Shown piece after piece: positions 2,828 through 38,002 of a DNA stretch of 38,002 bases. Source of the stretch: Planctomycetia bacterium. GTDB taxonomy: Bacteria; Planctomycetota; Planctomycetia; Planctomycetales; Planctomycetaceae. The stretch spans positions 1 to 38,002 of the forward strand of contig JAYVQJ010000121.1 of assembly GCA_043777235.1 (NCBI GenBank), in the 5' to 3' direction. The translations under genes and the position numbers were made by a program. Each line of letters opens with the position of its first letter. The first letter of the stretch is position 1. The notes beneath the pieces were generated by a model, which worked only from the letters and a program-made list of their open reading frames with translations, was not told where the DNA came from and searched no databases.

Positions 2828-5800
2828 TCACTGGTCGAGCGGAGGCGAATCGTGATCGCCGACCACATTGCCAGCGGGCAACTTCTCCGCCGCTTCTTTC
2901 GTTCGCTCGTTCTTGACGTAGTGCTGCAAGACTTGGCCGCGGTAGGTTCGCAGCGGGCGGACGAGCCGGCGTTCAAGATGTTGCTTGCGAGCCTCCCATT
3001 CGGCGACAGGAGCGATTCCCTCGGCCGACAAAGCATCCAACGTCGCGAAGGAAGTCTCGGCGGCGGTGATGCTCCGTTCGATGTCATTGAGCGCGACTCG
3101 CGATGACGTCGGCCGAAACTCGCCTCGAGCGCCCCAGCGAGCCAACAGCATTTGCAGCAGCGCGTTGATCTGATCGAACCGCTCGGTCTTATCGGGAATC
3201 GCTGCTGGCGTTGAATTCACGAATTGCAGCGCGTTGGCAACGTTGCGAATCGAGCGATCGGCCGGCGTCGAAAAGTAGATCGCTGCGAGCCGATGTCGCA
3301 GTTCGTTGGCCGGATCGCGATCTGTGCAGCGGTCACTCAATTCAACGACTTCTTGATGCAGGAACGGCGTGACGAGCGGATCGAATGGCGACTCGAAGCG
3401 GCGCAGTTGGTCGAGGTTTGCGTCGGTCAGTTGCGAGTTCTTCGCAAGCTCACCGATCTTTCGGAAATACTTCAGTCGCCGGTCATCGTCGGGATGCAGT
3501 CCCGACTCAGTCTTCTTGTGGCTGACTTGCTGAATCATCGCTCGCGTCGAGCCGGTCATGTGGTCTTTGACTTGTTTGCGATACGCCCAAAACTCGTCTT
3601 GATGCCGACGGATGATGGCTCGTGACAACTCCCATTCGCTCAGCCGAGCCGCGACATCGGCGTTGTCCGCTGCGTCGCCACCCCAAGCCAGCAAGAAGCG
3701 GCTGTGCTTGGCCAATTCCGTTTGCACGAGTTGCAGCTTGTTCTCCCAACGCATGACTTCGGTCGGCAGACGGAACGGCCACGTCGAACGAGACGCAACG
3801 TTGATGACCCCTCCGCGTTGACTCGCCAGTTCCTGAATTGCTTCGTGATTCAACATCGGCAACCGCAACGGAGCCGACCAATCCCAGCCGGCTGACGCCA
3901 ACAACTGCCGCACCTGCGGACGCTGCCAACGCTCGATGAATCCCTCGCGAGCGAATCCTTGTTCGGACTGCGTGCCGAGGAACAGCAATTCCCCCGTAGC
4001 AATCTCGACCGCCGCGACTTCGCGAAACACCGCCGACATCGTCGCCGCCAACGCTCGCACCGAGCGCAGGCCGAGATCAACGTGCTGAAATCGGATCGCG
4101 AACAAGCCCTCGTCGTTGAGGCGCTTGGCCGTCGCGTGCAGCGACTCGACCGTGAACGAGTTGCTTGCCTGCGACAACGAAGGTTGATCGGCCGAAGCAA
4201 CGATCACATCGAATGTCTCACGCATCGTCCGCACTGCGAGCGCCGGATCGCAGACGCGAATTTCCATTCGATCATCATTCATCGCCGAAGCAACACTGTC
4301 GCGCGACAGCAGGCTTCGACACAGACTTGTCACACCTCGATCCGCTTCGACACAGACGATTCGCTGCAACGGAAACACGGTCGCTGCCACAAGCGGTTCA
4401 CCCACTCGCAGGCCGAGCAGCAAGACGCTCTGCGGCCGCTCGTGAGTCACTAGCGGCAGCACCGTCGGCAACACATCCGGCAGAAATCTCGGAGCCAAAT
4501 TCGCATTTGTGGCGAGCGTCCCTTTCGGAATACCGTTCTCACGCACGAGGAATCGCGAACCAGCAAACTTCCACGCGGTCAGAGTCCCGCGATCACCTTC
4601 GACAACAACCGCCGCTCGTCCTTCGTCCAAAACGGAAAGCTGCTCCCACGGAATTTCCGCTCGTGAGGCAACGAAGACTCCTGTGTCGAACAACACCTTC
4701 GCCGCCAATTCCGGCCGATAACGCACCCAAATCGGAGCCGTCAGCGCGAAGAGCAGCATCGCAGCGACCACACCGGCACTCAACCTCGTGAGCCGGAACG
4801 CGCTAGCGTCCGGTTGTGTTGTGGCCATTGAACCGGACGCTAGCGCGTTCCGGCTAATGAGTTTTGTCCGACGAAGTCGATCAACTGCGACAACCAACAA
4901 CAGCAGGACGCTCGCGACGAATGCGAGATTCCACACACCAATCGACGGCAGCAGCCACATCGCCAACGTCGCAGAACTCAGCGAGGCCGCGACTCCAAAA
5001 AATGAACCACTGCGACCGATCAATGCACCAACACCGATCACGATCGGTCCCAGCACCACGCCGACTATCGCCATCCTCAGCGACTGCAACAGCCAGACTT
5101 GCGAGATTGTCGAGTTCTCCCACAGTGCCAGACGAACTCCGAGCGGGAACGCCGCTAAGAGCAACCACATCCAGCACACCAATCCCAAACCACCGACCAG
5201 CAGTTGTCGCGGCTGAGTTTTCCCGAACAACAAACCTCCGACAGCGATCCCGGCCACGAGCACCGACCACTCAAACGTCATGAGCGCAAACGAATCGGGA
5301 ATCAGTTGCCGACACAATCTCTGTCCGATCACCCACGCGATCCCTGCCGCGATCAGCCCGACAATGTGGGGCAGGTTTTCAACCTGTCCTTTCAATACCT
5401 TGGCAGGTTGGACGGGCAGGTTGAAAACCTGCCCCACGTTGTCGCGCGACCCGCGCACAAGCAGCGTCACGAACGCGATCAGCCCGCAAACCGAGGACAG
5501 CAACCCACAGCCATCCGGCCCGATGAGGCTCGCCAGTCCGAGTCCTCCGATCGCAAATGTCGTTGCGAAACCGACACCGAATGACGTCCGCCGTTCCGGG
5601 ACGATCAAACTCAGCGAGCAAATCGCGGGGACTCCGAGAGTCACCAGCGCCAACAACGTCAGACAGCAACACTGACCAATCAATGACGACGAAAAATCAA
5701 AACCAGTCCCTTCAACCGCTCGCCATGCAGCGGCGAACAGACTCGGCAGCGCGACCGACCAGGCCGACAACAGGAACAGCCGAATCGACGGAGCCACGAG

Positions 5801-10578: not shown

Positions 10579-10610
10579 GCGTGAACATCGCGGCGCGCTT
10601 TGCGGTTCCG

Positions 10611-10712
10611 CTCAGTCACCCGAAACGTCAGCGAGGGCGAATACTCGACGAATCGAGGGGTATTCGGAGCTTCGTAAAGCGATCGCCCTCGCTGACGCGT
10701 CGGGTTACTGAG
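10611..10712. repeat. Palindromic element, family P (ACCCGAARCGTCAGCGAGGGCGA arms), copy 1
   Basis: ctcagtcacccgaaacgtcagcgagggcga (10611-10640) pairs with tcgccctcgctgacgcgtcgggttactgag (10683-10712). A second copy is at 31754-31832. The right arm overlaps the stop codon of the DUF1028 gene. Confidence 0.9.
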
Positions 10713-11505
10713 CCGACAATTTCGGGCGGTCGGGGCAAGGATGCTGGAACGGCAGTTTGGCTCCGCGCCACGTTCCTTTGGCGTCGTGTTTGAGTTCGGC
10801 GTATTGCTTCGCGAGTTCAACGACCGCGTCGTCGCTCTTGTCGACGTGCAGCGAGAACCAATCGCCGTCGACCCCTTTCTTCGCGACTCGAATGCCGGCG
10901 GCGAGTCGGCCGCGATGATCGCCTCCGGCGCAATCGCCGGCGATGAGCGCAGCCATCAGGCGATCGGTGAGACTACCGGTCGTCTCCTCGTAGGCTTTCG
11001 ACATCGCGACGACGACTTCGCGGCCGGCCAGCGTGTTCCCTTGGCAGCAGTAGAAGCGACCGGTCATGGCTCCCCAGTAGCGGCTTCCTTCCGGAGCGGC
11101 CGTCGGATTGTGGACGGCAGCTTGGCCCTGCATGTCGATGATCGCTAACTGACGCAGTTCCGGAGTCTTGTCGTCCTTGAGCAGTTCGGCGATCACCGCC
11201 TCCGGCCGTTTGCCCGCTTGCAATAGATCGAGCGCCGGCTCGCCCCACTTCGGGACGTGATAATGCTGAGTGCAGAACGCTCCAACATCGGCTCGGACAT
11301 ACGGCACGACCTTGCCGACCGCCGGATACTTGCTGGCGACGGCGGCACCGCAGACATGATTGTCAGGATCGACGGCAACGATCGAGAACGTGGCCGTGAT
11401 CTCCGGCTTCCTGTTCAGCGACTCCTCCGGCGGAGCGGCATTCAGTGATTGGCTCAGCAACGACGTCAATAGAGTCATCACCAGAAGGATGTGAGTTTTT
11501 AGCAC
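10705..11505 (-). CDS. DUF1028 family protein (Ntn-hydrolase-like), secreted
   Basis: ATFSIVAVDPDNHVCGAAVASKYPAVGKVVPYVRADVGAFCTQH is the DUF1028 signature. I chose the GTG at 11505, which gives signal peptide MLKTHILLVMTLLTSLLSQSLNA. Upstream ORF codons read through a repeat. An alternative ATG is at 11478. Confidence 0.8.
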   Translation of the reverse strand: MLKTHILLVMTLLTSLLSQSLNAAPPEESLNRKPEITATFSIVAVDPDNHVCGAAVASKYPAVGKVVPYVRADVGAFCTQHYHVPKWGEPALDLLQAGKRPEAVIAELLKDDKTPELRQLAIIDMQGQAAVHNPTAAPEGSRYWGAMTGRFYCCQGNTLAGREVVVAMSKAYEETTGSLTDRLMAALIAGDCAGGDHRGRLAAGIRVAKKGVDGDWFSLHVDKSDDAVVELAKQYAELKHDAKGTWRGAKLPFQHPCPDRPKLSAQ

Positions 11506-23361: not shown

Positions 23362-23413
23362 GATCTCGCCTCTATGTCAGAAGGAGGAACGTCGCGCATT
23401 GACGAACAAAGTA

Positions 23414-23667
23414 GCCGTCATCGCTCCGCGTGACGAGCCTTGCGCAATTGATCCAGGGCTGGCTAGTTTGCCGTACCGCGGGGAACGTAGGGTGGCGTCG
23501 AGTCATCGAGACCCACCGGAATTTCACACAAGTGGTGGGTCTCGATGACTCGACCGCACCCTACATTTGACAAACTAGGCCGCCCTGGCGGTTGATCCCC
23601 GAATCATTGACGACTGAGGTGGTCGAGCGTCGTAGTCCAGAAGGCTCATCACGCGGAGCGATGATGG
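23414..23667. repeat. About 250-bp composite nested palindrome (three concentric inverted-repeat pairs)
   Basis: Outer pair: catcgctccgcgtgacgagcc (about 23418-23438) with ggctcatcacgcggagcgatg (23643-23663). Middle pair: ccagggctggctagtttg (about 23452-23469) with caaactaggccgccctgg (about 23571-23588). Inner pair: aacgtagggtggcgtcgagtcatcgagacccacc with ggtgggtctcgatgactcgaccgcaccctacatt (23484-23567). Confidence 0.85.
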
Positions 23668-24454
23668 TTATTTCTCCACAAACCAAACATTGCGATAGCG
23701 GACTTCGCTGTTGTGGTCTTGCAGGTTGATCGGGCCGGGGTCGGGGCCTTCAGGGAGGGGCGACGAGGTCGTGGCGTGAGTCAGTTCGACGTTGTCGTGG
23801 ACAACGACTCCGTTGTGCCGCACGGTCAGGCGACCGTTCTTGGTCTTCTGGCCATTGGTGAATTGAGTGGCGGTGAAGTCGATGTCGTAAGTTTGCCAGG
23901 ACAGCGGCGGGAAGGACATGCTGATGTCCGGTTCTTTGATCGACGGGATGCCGCCGCATTCGTGGTTGTGCGGCTTCAGTCCGAACGAATCGAGCATCTG
24001 CACTTCATAGCGGCTTTGCAGATAACACCCGCTGTTCCCGCGGCTCGGCACCGAGCGTCGAACTCTTGCGGACGATCCGTTTCAGTTCGCCGATGGCCTT
24101 GCCATCCGTCGTGAGTGTCATCTCACCGTCTTTGATCGTTGCGGTCTGTTCGTCCGCCTTGAACGTCGTGACGCCGGACGTCGTCTGTGCTTCGTGCGGA
24201 GCGATTTCATTTTTGTCCCAACCGTCTCCGGGCAGCCCACCGTTTCGCCACACCGCGTGAAATTTTCCCTTGCCGATCGCGACGATTTGCACGCCGAGTT
24301 TCTTCTTGCCGTCCGAGCGAGTGACTTCGCCGACGTACTCGCCTTGAACGAGAACGTCGGGATCATCCGGTGTGACGTCCTTCGGTTCCGCCGCGCGCAG
24401 AGACGAGAGTACGCAGAGGATCAAACATGTGGAAAAATAGACGCGAACGAACAT
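23668..24454 (-). pseudogene. DUF1080 (3-keto-disaccharide hydrolase-like) gene disrupted by a frameshift and probable internal deletion
   Basis: Two overlapping ORFs lie in different frames. ORF 24005..24454 has a signal peptide, an N-domain and ...RKSSTLGAEP. ORF 23668..24051 reads ...RGNSGCYLQSRYEVQMLDSFGL...NLQDHNSEVRYRNVWFVEK. The frames switch at about 24040-24051, and the segment normally between the STLGA and GNSG.YLQ motifs is missing. Confidence 0.65.
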
Positions 24455-24778: not shown

Positions 24779-26776
24779 TTACGGATTCGAGACCGACTTC
24801 ACCGTTGGCAACACACCTAACCGCAGACTCGTCGGATGCGCGGCCGAGCGAAAGACTCGGTGAGTCGCCTTCCGGAAATCGTCGGGCTTCGCGAAGTAGA
24901 TGTTGTCGACGAACGTCTGCGGGTTGCGATCGGCCAGCGGGAACCAAGTGCTTTGGATTTGCACCATCAGGCGATGTCCCTTTTGGAAACGGTGCAGCAC
25001 GTCGAGCAACTCGAAGCGGACGCGCGTCGGTTCGCCCGGCTTGAAGGGTTCGGGCTTGGCGTAGTCGTTGCGGAAGCGGCCGCGGAAAACTTCGCTGCGG
25101 ATCATCATTTGATAACCGGCCAGCGGCGTTCCTTCGGCAGCATCCGGGCGGACGTCGATCAGCTTCACGATCCAGTCGGCGTCGGTGCCGGTGGTCGAGA
25201 CCCACAGGTCCGCTTCGAGCGGGCCGGCAACGACGGTGTCTTCCGTGAACGGCTCGGTTTGATACGTCAGCACGTCCGGCCGGCGCGAAGCAAAGCGTTG
25301 GTCATCGACCATGTACTCGATCGTCATCTTCGGAGTGATGATCTCGCAGTACGGGACCGGCTTGTTCGGATCGCTGACGAATTCGTCGTAGCCCTCAATG
25401 TAGCCCTCTCGTTCCGCGAGAGGATCAGCCGAGCGCGCGGTTGTCGCGTTCTTTTCATTGGAAGTTCGTTTCGGAGATCGGCTTTCCTCTCGCGGAACGA
25501 GAGGGCTACTTTCCGGGGCGGACCAATCCAGTTTGCCTCCCTCGCGCACGAAGAGTTGCTTTGACTCCGTCTTCTTCGGTGGCCATTGATCGAAAGTCCG
25601 CCAGACGTTTGAGCCGGTCTCGAAGACGGTCGCCTCGGCGGGAGCAGGAATCTCTTTGTCTTTGAGATACTTCTCGAAGAACGGCAGCTCGATGTGTTCG
25701 CGGTAGAACGCTCCGGTCTTCGATCCAAACGGGACGTTGCCGAGCTTGTCGCCATCGACGCTGGCCCAACCGCCGTGATGCCACGGGCCAACGACCAGCA
25801 CGTTGTTGACCTTCGGGTTCTGCTTCTCGACCGAGTGATACGTCTTGAACGAGCCGTACAAATCCTCGGCGTCGTACCAGCCGGTGACGGTCATCACGGC
25901 GGGGGCGACGTTCTTCAGATGCGGGATTAAGGCTCGCTTCTGCCAGAACTCGTCCCGGTTCGGGTGCAGCATCATGTCCTTCCAGAACGGGATCTGCCCC
26001 TTGAGGTACAGCTTGTCGATGTTCTCGACCGAGCCCGCCTCCAAAAACATCTTGTAGCCGTCGGGAGTCGGGTAGATGAACGGCTTCGCGGGTTCGGTCG
26101 AAGGCTTCGTCCGTTCGTGATCGTTGCTCGACAGCCAGCGGAACGCGTGAGCCAAGAAGAACGAGCCGTGATGCAGGAAGTCATCAAAATACCAATCGCC
26201 GACGGGAGCCTGCGGCGAGACCGCCTTCAGCGCCGGATGTGCGTCGATCATCCCTGCCGCCGCGTAGAAGCCGGGGTACGAGATCCCCGCCATACCGACT
26301 CGGCCGTTGTGATGCGGGATGTTCTTCAGCAGCCATTCGATCGTGTCGAACGTGTCCGAGCTTTCGTCGATGTCGGTCGGCTTCGACTTGTTCGGCAAGT
26401 GCGGCGTGACTTGGACGAAGTCTCCCTCGGAGGCGAACCGCCCGCGCACGTCCTGATTGACGAAGATGTATCCCGCCTTCACGAAGTGCTCACTGGGCCC
26501 GATCTTCGACGGGTACTTGTCTTCGCCATACGGAGCGACGTTGTACGGCGTCCGCTTCATCATCATCGGATATTTCTTGGTCGTGTCGCGCGGCACAAAG
26601 ACCGACGTGAACAGCTTCACGCCGTCACGCATCGGAATCATGTGCTCGGACTTCGTGTAGTTCAGCCGCAGATAACTTTCGAGCTGCGACGGCTCTTGAG
26701 CCACCGCTCGATCGGAAACCTGAGCACCGATCAACGACACGGTCAGCAGCAACGCAACGCGAACGAGTTGTCTCAT
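24779..26776 (-). CDS. CocE/NonD family hydrolase (X-Pro dipeptidyl-peptidase S15-like), secreted
   Basis: 665 aa with a signal peptide. MIPMRDGVKLFTSVFVP, RTPY, GISYPGFY (GxSYxG nucleophile) and a C-terminal beta-sandwich ending ...HRVFRSAAHPSLRLGVLP-like. It carries a 110-bp palindromic insert in frame. Confidence 0.9.
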   Translation of the reverse strand: MRQLVRVALLLTVSLIGAQVSDRAVAQEPSQLESYLRLNYTKSEHMIPMRDGVKLFTSVFVPRDTTKKYPMMMKRTPYNVAPYGEDKYPSKIGPSEHFVKAGYIFVNQDVRGRFASEGDFVQVTPHLPNKSKPTDIDESSDTFDTIEWLLKNIPHHNGRVGMAGISYPGFYAAAGMIDAHPALKAVSPQAPVGDWYFDDFLHHGSFFLAHAFRWLSSNDHERTKPSTEPAKPFIYPTPDGYKMFLEAGSVENIDKLYLKGQIPFWKDMMLHPNRDEFWQKRALIPHLKNVAPAVMTVTGWYDAEDLYGSFKTYHSVEKQNPKVNNVLVVGPWHHGGWASVDGDKLGNVPFGSKTGAFYREHIELPFFEKYLKDKEIPAPAEATVFETGSNVWRTFDQWPPKKTESKQLFVREGGKLDWSAPESSPLVPREESRSPKRTSNEKNATTARSADPLAEREGYIEGYDEFVSDPNKPVPYCEIITPKMTIEYMVDDQRFASRRPDVLTYQTEPFTEDTVVAGPLEADLWVSTTGTDADWIVKLIDVRPDAAEGTPLAGYQMMIRSEVFRGRFRNDYAKPEPFKPGEPTRVRFELLDVLHRFQKGHRLMVQIQSTWFPLADRNPQTFVDNIYFAKPDDFRKATHRVFRSAAHPTSLRLGVLPTVKSVSNP
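25400..25509. repeat. Palindromic element, family S (GTAGCCCTCTCGYTCCGCGAGAGG arms), inside a CDS
   Basis: gtagccctctcgttccgcgagagga (25400-25424) pairs with tcctctcgcggaacgagagggctac (25485-25509). It is translated ...SSPLVPREESRSPKRTSNEKNATTARSADPLAEREGY... Intergenic copies are at 36536-36661 and 37131-37243. Confidence 0.9.
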
Positions 26777-31736: not shown

Positions 31737-31753
31737 AGGCGGATCCAAAAACC

Positions 31754-31832
31754 AAAACTAACCCGAAGCGTCAGCGAGGGCGATTCGCGATTGAATTTCC
31801 AAGGCCCCTCGCTGACGCTTCGGGTTAGTTTT
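31754..31832. repeat. Palindromic element, family P, copy 2
   Basis: aaaactaacccgaagcgtcagcgagggc pairs with gcccctcgctgacgcttcgggttagtttt. It lies between convergent gene ends. Confidence 0.9.
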
Positions 31833-31846
31833 GAAATCGCCTCGAA

Positions 31847-33856: not shown

Positions 33857-33892
33857 GCGACAACGAGCTGAAGGCGCTTGGTTTCGGTCATT

Positions 33893-33963
33893 AGCCGGCA
33901 CGCGCTAGCGTCCGGTTCGAGAGTCCATCGACCTTCCGAACCGGACGCTAGCGCGTACCGGCT
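33893..33963. repeat. Palindromic element, family N, intergenic copy
   Basis: agccggcacgcgctagcgtccgg (33893-33915) pairs with ccggacgctagcgcgtaccggct (33941-33963). It lies between convergent gene ends. Confidence 0.9.
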
Positions 33964-33999
33964 GATCTGTGATTCGTGCCTCAAGTAAGTACCGTCGGG

Positions 34000-36535: not shown

Positions 36536-36661
36536 GTAGCCCTCTCGCTCCGCGAGAGGAAAGCCGAACGTCTCTCGACATTCGATCTCACGGTCAACAC
36601 GTCATGGGACATGACAGCGCAATTCGCGCTCGGCTGTCCTCTCGCGGAGCGAGAGGGCTAC
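36536..36661. repeat. Palindromic element, family S, intergenic copy (C/G stem variant)
   Basis: gtagccctctcgctccgcgagaggaaagccga (from 36536) pairs with tcggctgtcctctcgcggagcgagagggctac (to 36661). Each arm is GTAG plus its own 8-bp hairpin cctctcgc/gcgagagg. Confidence 0.9.
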
Positions 36662-37130: not shown

Positions 37131-37243
37131 GTAGCCCTGTCGCTCCGCGACAGGAAAGCCGACAGTGCGCGAGGTTAGAGAAAACCAGCAAGCTCGTGAG
37201 TTCCATCCCATCGGCAATTCCTGTCGCGGAGCGACAGGGCTAC
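37131..37243. repeat. Palindromic element, family S, intergenic copy (G/C stem variant)
   Basis: gtagccctgtcgctccgcgacaggaaagccga (from 37131) pairs with tcggcaattcctgtcgcggagcgacagggctac (to 37243). Relative to 36536-36661, the stem position C>G is matched by G>C on the partner strand. Confidence 0.9.
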
Positions 37244-37923: not shown

Positions 37924-37945
37924 CACTCGGACTTCGTTCGTGCAT

Positions 37946-38002
37946 GGCTGGCTAGTTCTTCAAACGTAGGGTGCGGTCGAGTCATCGAGACCCACCACTT
38001 GT
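37946..38002. repeat. Left half of the composite family-V element, cut by the window end
   Basis: ggctggctagtt...aacgtagggtgcggtcgagtcatcgagacccacc reproduces the order of the middle and inner arms seen at 23455-23515. Confidence 0.8.

Follow-up and report, generated by a model that had tools for sequence, protein, structure and literature searches.

An in-frame dimer of a GTAG-type repetitive extragenic palindrome in an intact planctomycete hydrolase gene, at a loop where other palindromes also land

How can a palindrome of 110 bp lie in the middle of a coding sequence and leave the gene intact? The question is raised by positions 25400-25509 of a 38,002-nt stretch of DNA (the window) from a Planctomycetia bacterium (GenBank assembly GCA_043777235.1, contig JAYVQJ010000121.1), where such an element, of a repeat family that we call family S, is read through within a 665-aa open reading frame (ORF) for a secreted hydrolase. 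Our answer, which we hold with good confidence, is that the element is a dimer of a genus-wide GTAG-type repetitive extragenic palindrome (REP), presumably linked to a REP-associated tyrosine transposase (RAYT), and that it is carried as a tolerated in-frame passenger in a loop, predicted to be disordered, of an intact enzyme. A preliminary description had already placed the palindrome in frame in an otherwise intact CocE/NonD-type gene, which the perfect arms, the absence of stops and the intact Pfam domains and motifs bear out; what it overlooked was the identity of the element as a GTAG-type REP dimer with a RAYT-like partner, the presence of half of the family in genes, and the sharing of the site with other elements in relatives. 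The source genome (G000) is a metagenome-assembled genome (MAG) of 6.79 Mb in 1236 contigs (59% GC, 4.6% contamination), with relatives labelled Planctomycetaceae and Schlesneria. Throughout, P numbers denote orthologue proteins, L numbers loci, G numbers genomes and C numbers contigs of G000.

The element begins with GTAGCCCTCTCGTTCCGCGAGAGGA and ends with TCCTCTCGCGGAACGAGAGGGCTAC, its arms are complementary at 25/25 positions, and the corresponding RNA has a folding energy of -77.9 kcal/mol (z = -10.8), with a perfect helix of 25 bp. The arm pattern gave six matches in the window against none in 100 shuffles, and these six are the arms of the gene copy and of the two intergenic dimers (Table 1) that the preliminary description had also assigned to the family. 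Within the ORF the element is translated without stops as ...APESSPLVPREESRSPKRTSNEKNATTARSADPLAEREGYIEGYDEF..., in the context APE-SSPLVPREESRSPKRTSNEKNATTARSADPLAEREGY-IEGY-DEF, where the element itself encodes residues 423-459 and a duplicated terminus encodes residues 460-463. The ORF stays open because the TAG in the GTAG head is out of phase with the frame used, and the outcome is a hydrophilic peptide rich in Pro, Ser, Arg and Glu (SSPLVPREESR...PLAEREGY). Both arms of the gene copy carry the same rare T variant of the loop, and the sole genome matches of the element come from its arms. The idea that it is a recent copy of another genomic element was accordingly dropped, as no second copy of the spacer was found in the genome. 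The 110-bp extent stands for the core only, since the conserved unit reaches 4 nt further on each side (CAAT and TTTC).

The S15 alpha/beta-hydrolase domain (PF02129, 9e-54) and the PepX_C jelly-roll domain (PF08530, 2e-35) were both found in the 665-aa ORF, and the N-terminus carries a signal-like segment. The closest solved structure was 4PF1 (phmmer, E = 1e-126), and the alignment to it was interrupted between query residues 422 and 461, which correspond to chain residues 420 and 423; between the early jelly-roll strands and the DEFVSDPxKPVPY segment, the window protein thus has 38 residues where 4PF1 has 2. 4PF1 is a Thaumarchaeota aminopeptidase, 1MPX and 2B9V are alpha-amino acid ester hydrolases and 1JU3 is cocaine esterase; these S15/CocE-NonD hydrolases share with the window protein both the layout of alpha/beta-hydrolase domain, helical cap and C-terminal jelly-roll and the GxSYxG nucleophile motif. 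An AlphaFold2 (AF2) model built from 48 sequences, with a predicted local distance difference test score (pLDDT) of 68.6 and a predicted template modelling score (pTM) of 0.69, matched 4PF1 and the alpha-amino acid ester hydrolases at template modelling (TM) scores of 0.77-0.79. In this model residues 425-459 form a coil with pLDDT 29-36, flanked by confident strands at 415-417 and 463-467. The insert site is therefore predicted to be a hypervariable, disordered surface loop of the C-terminal beta-sandwich, a surface loop being what the preliminary description had suggested looking for. The preliminary description had set the insert before this beta-sandwich; it does precede the DEF block, but it follows the first beta-strands and lies inside the Pfam PepX_C domain. 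The GISYPG nucleophile motif, the Asp of GWYD (D302) and the His of PWHH (H334) are invariant columns in the orthologue alignment; S166 (in GISYPG), D302 and H334, which we take to be the catalytic triad by analogy with S117/D259/H287 of CocE, are all present, and the catalytic motifs and all invariant columns are intact.

Comparison with orthologues placed the gap exactly at the repeat, as the preliminary description had anticipated. Among the 120 best homologues (73-91% identity), lengths of 624-635 aa predominate, and 36 residues separate FDHWPP from DEFVSDP, compared with 69 in the window protein; orthologues, of about 632 aa, have 6-8 residues at the position of the element. All 16 readable orthologues of the same GTDB genus are empty at the site, reading ...PPDKAATDASFDEF, and the wider orthologue sets (120 and 80) are mostly empty as well. 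At the DNA level, the window gene has a single base, the 110-nt element and then the 12-nt ATTGAGGGCTAC (123 nt in all) in place of the 24 nt of its relatives, which on balance makes the protein 33 aa longer. The change is thus a replacement of the old loop and not a clean insertion.

Across the MAG, family S comprises about 199 arms on many contigs, arranged as 71 dimers of 104-128 bp (mode 125 bp) plus 57 single arms, and the arm anatomy is GTAGCC, a 7-bp stem and a 5-nt loop. It is the hairpin that is conserved, because the stems are fully paired in 128 of the 142 dimer arms across 16 different compensated variants. The two arms differ within 39 of the 71 dimers, and the spacers are variable, with weak conservation in the 125-bp class. 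The flanks of the 142 arms follow the logo (Y)CAAH/GTAG...CTAC/DTTG (slashes mark the element boundaries), with A at position -3 in 97, A at -2 in 105 and G at -1 in a single arm; they are inverted (CAAH...DTTG), and none of the 71 dimers has a direct flanking duplication of at least 3 nt. Family S was found in 19/19 genomes of the genus, with 8-167 arms each, and in all eight genomes reached via orthologue loci, against 0/12 genomes of other genera in the class; a reversed-pattern control gave 0. The family is apparently present vertically throughout this planctomycete genus.

Family S has the GTAG at one end of a short GC-rich stem-loop, the compensated hairpin and the high, dispersed copy number with inverted dimers that define REPs, and departs from them in that it is not confined to extragenic DNA, although intragenic units are already accepted as members of such families (PMC3733652). 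The window element forms one long hairpin from two inverted REPs, as do REP doublets forming hairpins (REPINs), whereas the whole doublet with its spacer is not conserved between copies of family S. It lacks the direct target-site duplication of miniature inverted-repeat transposable elements, and its GTAG head sets it apart from the CGTC head of RPE-4 and RPE-6 among the Rickettsia palindromic elements (RPEs). We conclude that the element consists of two GTAG-headed REP hairpins joined tail to tail, a unit like a REPIN or a bacterial interspersed mosaic element. The dimer is not obviously copied as one unit in the manner of classical REPINs, given the unique spacer in the window and the many dimers with unlike arms.

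The genome gave 13 matches to the Y1 transposase family PF01797. A 226-aa ORF at C614:4461-5138 (-), locus L118, has the HUH motif PNHVHLL and a Tyr in RRYIAAN, and scores E = 4e-12 and 46 bits against NF047646 (cut-off 80) and 26 bits against PF01797. Family-S dimers bracket this ORF on both sides, each with a partial second head, which is the arrangement of a REPtron, a Y1 HUH gene flanked by the same REPs. Its orthologues are 93% identical in G001 and 63% in G010, G011 and G013; C564 and C270 carry degraded paralogues, and the remnant on C270 adjoins a family-S copy. We infer that the C614 gene is the best candidate partner of family S, and that the family most likely owes its mobility, or at least its maintenance, to a RAYT-like Y1 (HUH) transposase. 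Other Y1 genes were also seen near REPs. A bona fide RAYT at C8:12069-12677 (-) (NF047646, 176 bits) is followed by a GTAGGGTGGG-type REP of a different family, which also occurs at positions 23484-23567 and 37963-37996 of the window. At C481:35-444 there is a C-terminal remnant of an IS200-like Y1 transposase gene with an internal TAG stop, and a canonical 126-bp family-S dimer lies 13 nt beyond it; this remnant was not taken as the partner of family S, being a different type of Y1 protein.

The adjacent EGY-I-EGY of the hydrolase had been regarded in the preliminary description as a hint of target-site duplication or target homology. The repeat GAGGGCTAC-att-GAGGGCTAC does exist (+ strand, 25388-25396 plus 25400-25408), whereas its derivation from the target does not hold up in view of the flanks described above and of its recurrence elsewhere. 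The same partial second head, laid out as GTAGCC with the first stem bases, then CAAN, then the full head, was found at 16 of 238 heads, including both REPs beside the C614 gene and one copy with partial heads on both sides. The copy in a P-type ATPase gene, which is considered below, ends in GAGGGCTACATTGAC/GAGGGCGACGTTGAC and encodes EREGYIDEGDVDE, with a duplicated terminus of 15 nt. Because these heads and the ATPase copy have the same structure, GAGGGCTAC-ATT-GAGGGCTAC in the window is a recurrent duplication of the element terminus and not a duplicated host target; it is 12 nt long and therefore in frame. An upstream host patch, CCGCCCCGGAA, was considered as the remnant of a split older REP and was rejected, as the match (10/14 with a gap) is too weak.

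The hydrolase is far from the only gene to carry family S. With a dimer taken as intragenic where the ORF around it continues without a stop for at least 330 nt to either side, the count came to 36 of the 71, hence 35 in-frame copies besides that of the window. The frame (A/C/T)GT AGC CCN is used by 29 of these 36, giving S/R/C-S-P-x-A-P-R-x-E with P-x-A-E-R-x-G-Y from the far arm; a second open frame (VALSLRDR) is used seven times, and the third is closed by the TAG of the head. Matches to Pfam families were obtained for 16 of the 17 host ORFs scanned (one had no match), including MutS, a P-type ATPase, a UvrA-like ABC protein, an Lhr helicase, a kinase-FGE protein, PSCyt/PSD proteins and VWA/BatA. 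Among testable copies the intragenic share is 35/62, compared with 49% for random 120-nt segments. The lengths L of the dimers are distributed differently in genes and outside them, with the classes L mod 3 = 2/1/0 represented by 22/11/3 and 8/10/17 copies, respectively (p = 2.8e-4). Plain insertion of GTAG...CTAC is expected to favour class 0; the lengths would fit a unit that takes one 4-nt flank along (L+4), or insertions with small changes to the target. At least 10 families of GTAGCC plus hairpin occur in the genome, some of them never intragenic (0/15, 0/14) and others always so (5/5, 6/6).

The history of the hydrolase site was examined with an orthologue tree built with the loop masked. 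The window protein groups with the empty P0001 as its sister (support 100/99), within an empty clade, and a separate 13-member clade mixes filled alleles (P0004, P0006, P0007, P0011), alleles with a 13-aa insert (P0014, P0015, P0055) and empty alleles. The filled alleles have a 110-nt family-S dimer at exactly the window's nucleotide (GAAA/GTAGCC...GGCTAC/TTC), with mutually homologous spacers and progressively decaying arms. The 13-aa alleles have a different palindrome of two hairpins with a GTAG or GTGG head (GT(A/G)GCGGACGCAGC...), which begins at the same nucleotide and encodes GGRSLRxxxTDAGSVGH (loci L016, L013, L048 and L049; P0014, P0055 and relatives). The preliminary description would have been refuted by a homologous peptide at this position in genomes devoid of the repeat family; the genomes with such a peptide all carry family S, and so do those with the 13-aa alleles. 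In six sister-clade species the block is always 114 nt long and in frame; relative to codon positions 1 and 2 it has evolved 3-8 times as fast, its rate being 35-90% of that at position 3. Since this block has long been kept in frame under very weak constraint, the insert-bearing enzyme appears to work, and the hydrolase of the window is very probably still functional. Overall, the hydrolase loop is a re-used landing site, occupied in related species by a family-S dimer or by a different GT(A/G)G-headed palindrome. The loop can also expand without a palindrome: in P0026 and P0029 (L167, L166) it has grown to 65-70 residues through GC-rich, low-complexity Ala/Gly/Ser repeats that are not REP-like.

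The hydrolase gene is moreover a mosaic, with a breakpoint at about 25630-25680 of the window (gene nt about 1100-1150); the P0001 gene (L001) matches its 5' 1.1 kb at 95-98% identity. Because of this mosaicism, the empty state of the closest orthologue does not date the insertion, and the window copy could have come by either of two routes. We favour an independent hit or replacement at a shared spot, on account of the non-homologous spacer, the perfect arms and the second family at the same nucleotide. The other route, which we consider unlikely, though the best placed of the remaining explanations, is common descent with recombination, where one old insertion of the Schlesneria-like clade (P0004, P0006, P0007, P0011) would have arrived with the 3' part of the gene and had its arms renewed by gene conversion. 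The boundary GAAA/GTAGCC and the 110-nt length are identical in the window and the clade, L002 also has the rare T-loop variant, the insert follows the breakpoint by about 150 nt and is itself followed by 90-110 nt that match insert-bearing alleles at 94-98% identity, the gene tree intermixes filled, short-insert and empty alleles, and a leftover partial arm adjoins the element. However, the spacer is only about 44% identical to that of L002 whereas clade members keep recognisably homologous spacers, the window arms are perfect whereas those of the clade decay, and the downstream stretch is conserved in all orthologues, with the empty L040 at 93%. Recent transfer from the P0004 clade was rejected on this last ground, as the 98% identity just downstream is weak evidence where the stretch is conserved in every orthologue. 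The different palindrome at the same nucleotide in P0014, P0015 and P0055 demonstrates, in addition, that independent hits at the hydrolase site do occur.

Two further genes reveal the same kind of turnover. The MutS gene (C1009:573-3404 (-), locus L035/L126; orthologue loci L127-L143) has its site between VPNDVRLG and GRVQLITGPNMAGKS, just before the Walker A motif, and 17 genomes of the genus, G000 included, are readable there. Family S occupies it in three genomes (a 163-nt dimer in G000, G017 and G013), seven other unrelated palindromes, two of which are GTAG-headed dimers, are found elsewhere, and one genome (G009) is nearly empty and still reads CGTAGT. The P-type ATPase gene (C574:2442-5939 (+), locus L022/L168; orthologue loci L169-L191) has its loop after DKTGT(LT), with family S in five genomes, a GTGGCGGACGC... 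(GTGGCGGACGCTGCCAGCGTCCG) family in five, a third family, TGGGGCAGGTTTTCAACCTGCCC, in two, other palindromes in two, and a nearly empty loop in two; the GTGGCGGACGC... family is the same as that of the 13-aa hydrolase insert. The kinase-FGE gene was set aside for this comparison because it has too many paralogues. A single loop can thus hold up to eight unrelated palindromes across congeneric species, several of them GTAG- or GTGG-headed dimers.

Such turnover implies either that a few permissive loops are hit repeatedly, or that elements home to existing hairpins and replace each other. We tentatively put forward, as a possibility that we rate below even, that the loops of the S15 hydrolase, MutS and the P-type ATPase are re-usable docking sites, where Y1-type enzymes would home to hairpins or to GTAG/NAAN sites and swap the elements. 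If so, intragenic REPs would turn over and not be frozen accidents, and the excess of intragenic copies with L+4 divisible by three would correspond to an IS200/IS605-like insertion of GTAG...CTAC+NTTG 3' of a NAAN target.

Turnover of this kind also bears on whether the insert has a function. The helix could affect the mRNA in cis, by offering RNase III a target, by stabilising the transcript or by making translation pause between domains, or the peptide could be an adaptive linker, and such roles would agree with the great stability of the hairpin, with the compensatory changes that keep stems even in intragenic copies, with the many intragenic copies at domain borders and with the sister clade that has no indels in 114 nt over deep divergence. 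We nevertheless regard a function as improbable, since the arms decay in the sister clade (P0007, P0006) while the peptide evolves near the synonymous rate, every genus orthologue read and most orthologues overall dispense with the insert, unrelated palindromes occupy the same loops in other species, and the host genes are unrelated in function. Still less credible, and in our view very improbable, is an artefact or a dead gene, in which an assembler joined reads through the repeat or a recent pseudogene has yet to acquire stops: the MAG is fragmented and has some contamination, the gene is in no RNA run and Logan contigs break inside the element, but both flanks belong to one gene in one frame, exact Logan unitigs span each junction with 0 mismatches (25356-25424 and 25484-25750), independent assemblies from other studies have a homologous in-frame insert at the same place, the catalytic motifs and invariant columns are intact, and the genome has 35 other in-frame copies.

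Taken together, these observations favour the reading of the element as a tolerated, nearly neutral passenger. Under this reading, purifying selection would leave only copies in the right frame, without stops, with a net length divisible by three and in a permissive loop; a RAYT-like Y1 enzyme would mobilise or maintain family S; the adjacent EGY-I-EGY would come from the duplication of the terminus; and the loop would be hit repeatedly as a landing site for palindromes. Several observations weigh on the other side. The C614 protein scores below the NCBIfam cut-off, mobility and the RAYT link are deduced from sequence, and the presence of C614-type genes tracks REP copy number only imperfectly (G017 has 50 arms and no match). 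The spacer of the window is unique and so many dimers have unlike arms, 20-24 nt of the ancestral loop are missing at the site, and the 3' 0.9 kb of the gene, insert included, is only 88-91% identical to any sampled orthologue. Read support consists of short Logan unitigs over each junction, which confirm the assembly and nothing beyond it, and none of the RNA runs checked for the hydrolase gene holds it. Finally, the intragenic share is likely inflated, because young intergenic copies probably break contigs in a fragmented MAG.

Table 1. Features of the hydrolase gene, its palindromic insert and the other family-S dimers in the window.
Feature	Position	Strand	Basis or remark
S15/PepX_C hydrolase gene (CocE/NonD, alpha-amino-acid-ester-hydrolase-like), secreted, 665 aa	24779-26776	-	Pfam, phmmer, AF2
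Core family-S element: two inverted GTAG-headed REP hairpins, heads outward (tail-to-tail), unique spacer between	25400-25509	.	RNA fold
Left REP arm: GTAG head, CC, 7-bp stem CCTCTCG/CGAGAGG, loop TTCCG, tail GAnnGCCGA (conserved)	25400-25434	+	
Spacer, hydrophilic peptide in the gene frame	25435-25474	.	No match elsewhere in genome
Right REP arm, reverse complement of left arm	25475-25509	-	
4-nt flank CAAT, fits family consensus (Y)CAAH outside the GTAG head	25396-25399	+	142-arm flank logo
Opposite flank, TTTC on the + strand, GAAA read towards the head; gives a Glu codon and the first base of Ser	25510-25513	-	Flank logo
Partial second head GTAGCCCTC; with the 3-nt AAT (25397-25399) encodes IEGY	25388-25396	+	16/238 heads
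Intergenic family-S dimer, 126 bp	36536-36661	.	
Intergenic family-S dimer, 113 bp; both arms with compensated stem variant CCTGTCG/CGACAGG	37131-37243	.	

Many palindromic repeats of other families are spread over the intergenic space of the window, some of them in coding loops; examples lie at 23409-23673, 23484-23567, 37943-38002, 4782-4864, 5356-5447, 10607-10716, 31753-31833 and 33890-33966.

Among known systems, the parallel with RPEs drawn in the preliminary description is fair as a functional analogy, the likeness being one of behaviour only. RPEs, reportedly described by Ogata and colleagues in 2000, are said to be elements of about 100-150 bp that lie in frame in unrelated genes. As with family S, surface peptide segments are added and the protein is not killed, whereas the CGTC head (RPE-4 and RPE-6; RPE-1 is longer) contrasts with GTAG, and the phylum is a different one. 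RPE-4 and RPE-6 have been classed under CGTC-type REPs, for which that classification found no dedicated transposase (PMC3733652), unlike family S, which flanks a RAYT-like gene.

The closest precedent is the survey by Di Nocera, De Gregorio and Rocco (2013, BMC Genomics 14:522, PMC3733652), where GTAG REP dimers wholly within ORFs, often of repair genes, were found to contribute 20-30 or more aa, such GTAG repeats were most numerous in Opitutus terrae of the Planctomycetes-Verrucomicrobia-Chlamydiae (PVC) group, and R. baltica was also among the hosts. Those REPs resemble family S in the GTAG head with a 6-9-bp stem-loop, the tail-to-tail dimers with variable spacers, the ORF-internal units, the repair-gene hosts, the REPtrons (RAYT genes flanked by REPs) and the occurrence in the PVC group. 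Family S differs in its new host genus and new family sequence, in the intragenic position of about half of the assembled dimers, in the strong preference for one frame and certain length classes, and in that loops of three genes hold different palindromes in congeneric species; for different REPs at about the same site, Xanthomonas recB alone is mentioned in that survey (PMC3733652). REPIN-RAYT systems (Bertels and Rainey 2011, PMC3116915; Nunvar 2010, PMC2817692; E. coli TnpA-REP, PMC3479197, PMC8266576) likewise have inverted doublets that can fold into one hairpin, GTAG beside the hairpin, a Y1/HUH gene bracketed by the repeats and an apparently vertical, genus-wide spread. In contrast, classical REPINs are extragenic whereas half of family S is intragenic, the family-S doublet, with its unconserved spacers and unlike arms, is not clearly the replicating unit, and the genome has several RAYT-like paralogues and many REP families, with a candidate RAYT that is distant (46 bits against 80).

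In-frame GTAG REPs are thus already published, and what merits further attention is how different palindromes turn over at fixed loops. For annotation, these findings are a warning that odd hydrophilic inserts of 30-40 aa in planctomycete proteins can be repeat DNA. The hydrolase offers a well-resolved case of one site in four states (empty, filled, decaying and replaced), which may be of use for open questions on REPs and RAYTs, namely their mode of insertion and whether they are parasites or tolerated passengers, and for how proteins gain loop segments. For the organisms themselves, the findings show that REP dimers are tolerated in dozens of real genes, DNA-repair genes included, by a genus of Planctomycetaceae from fresh water and sediment.

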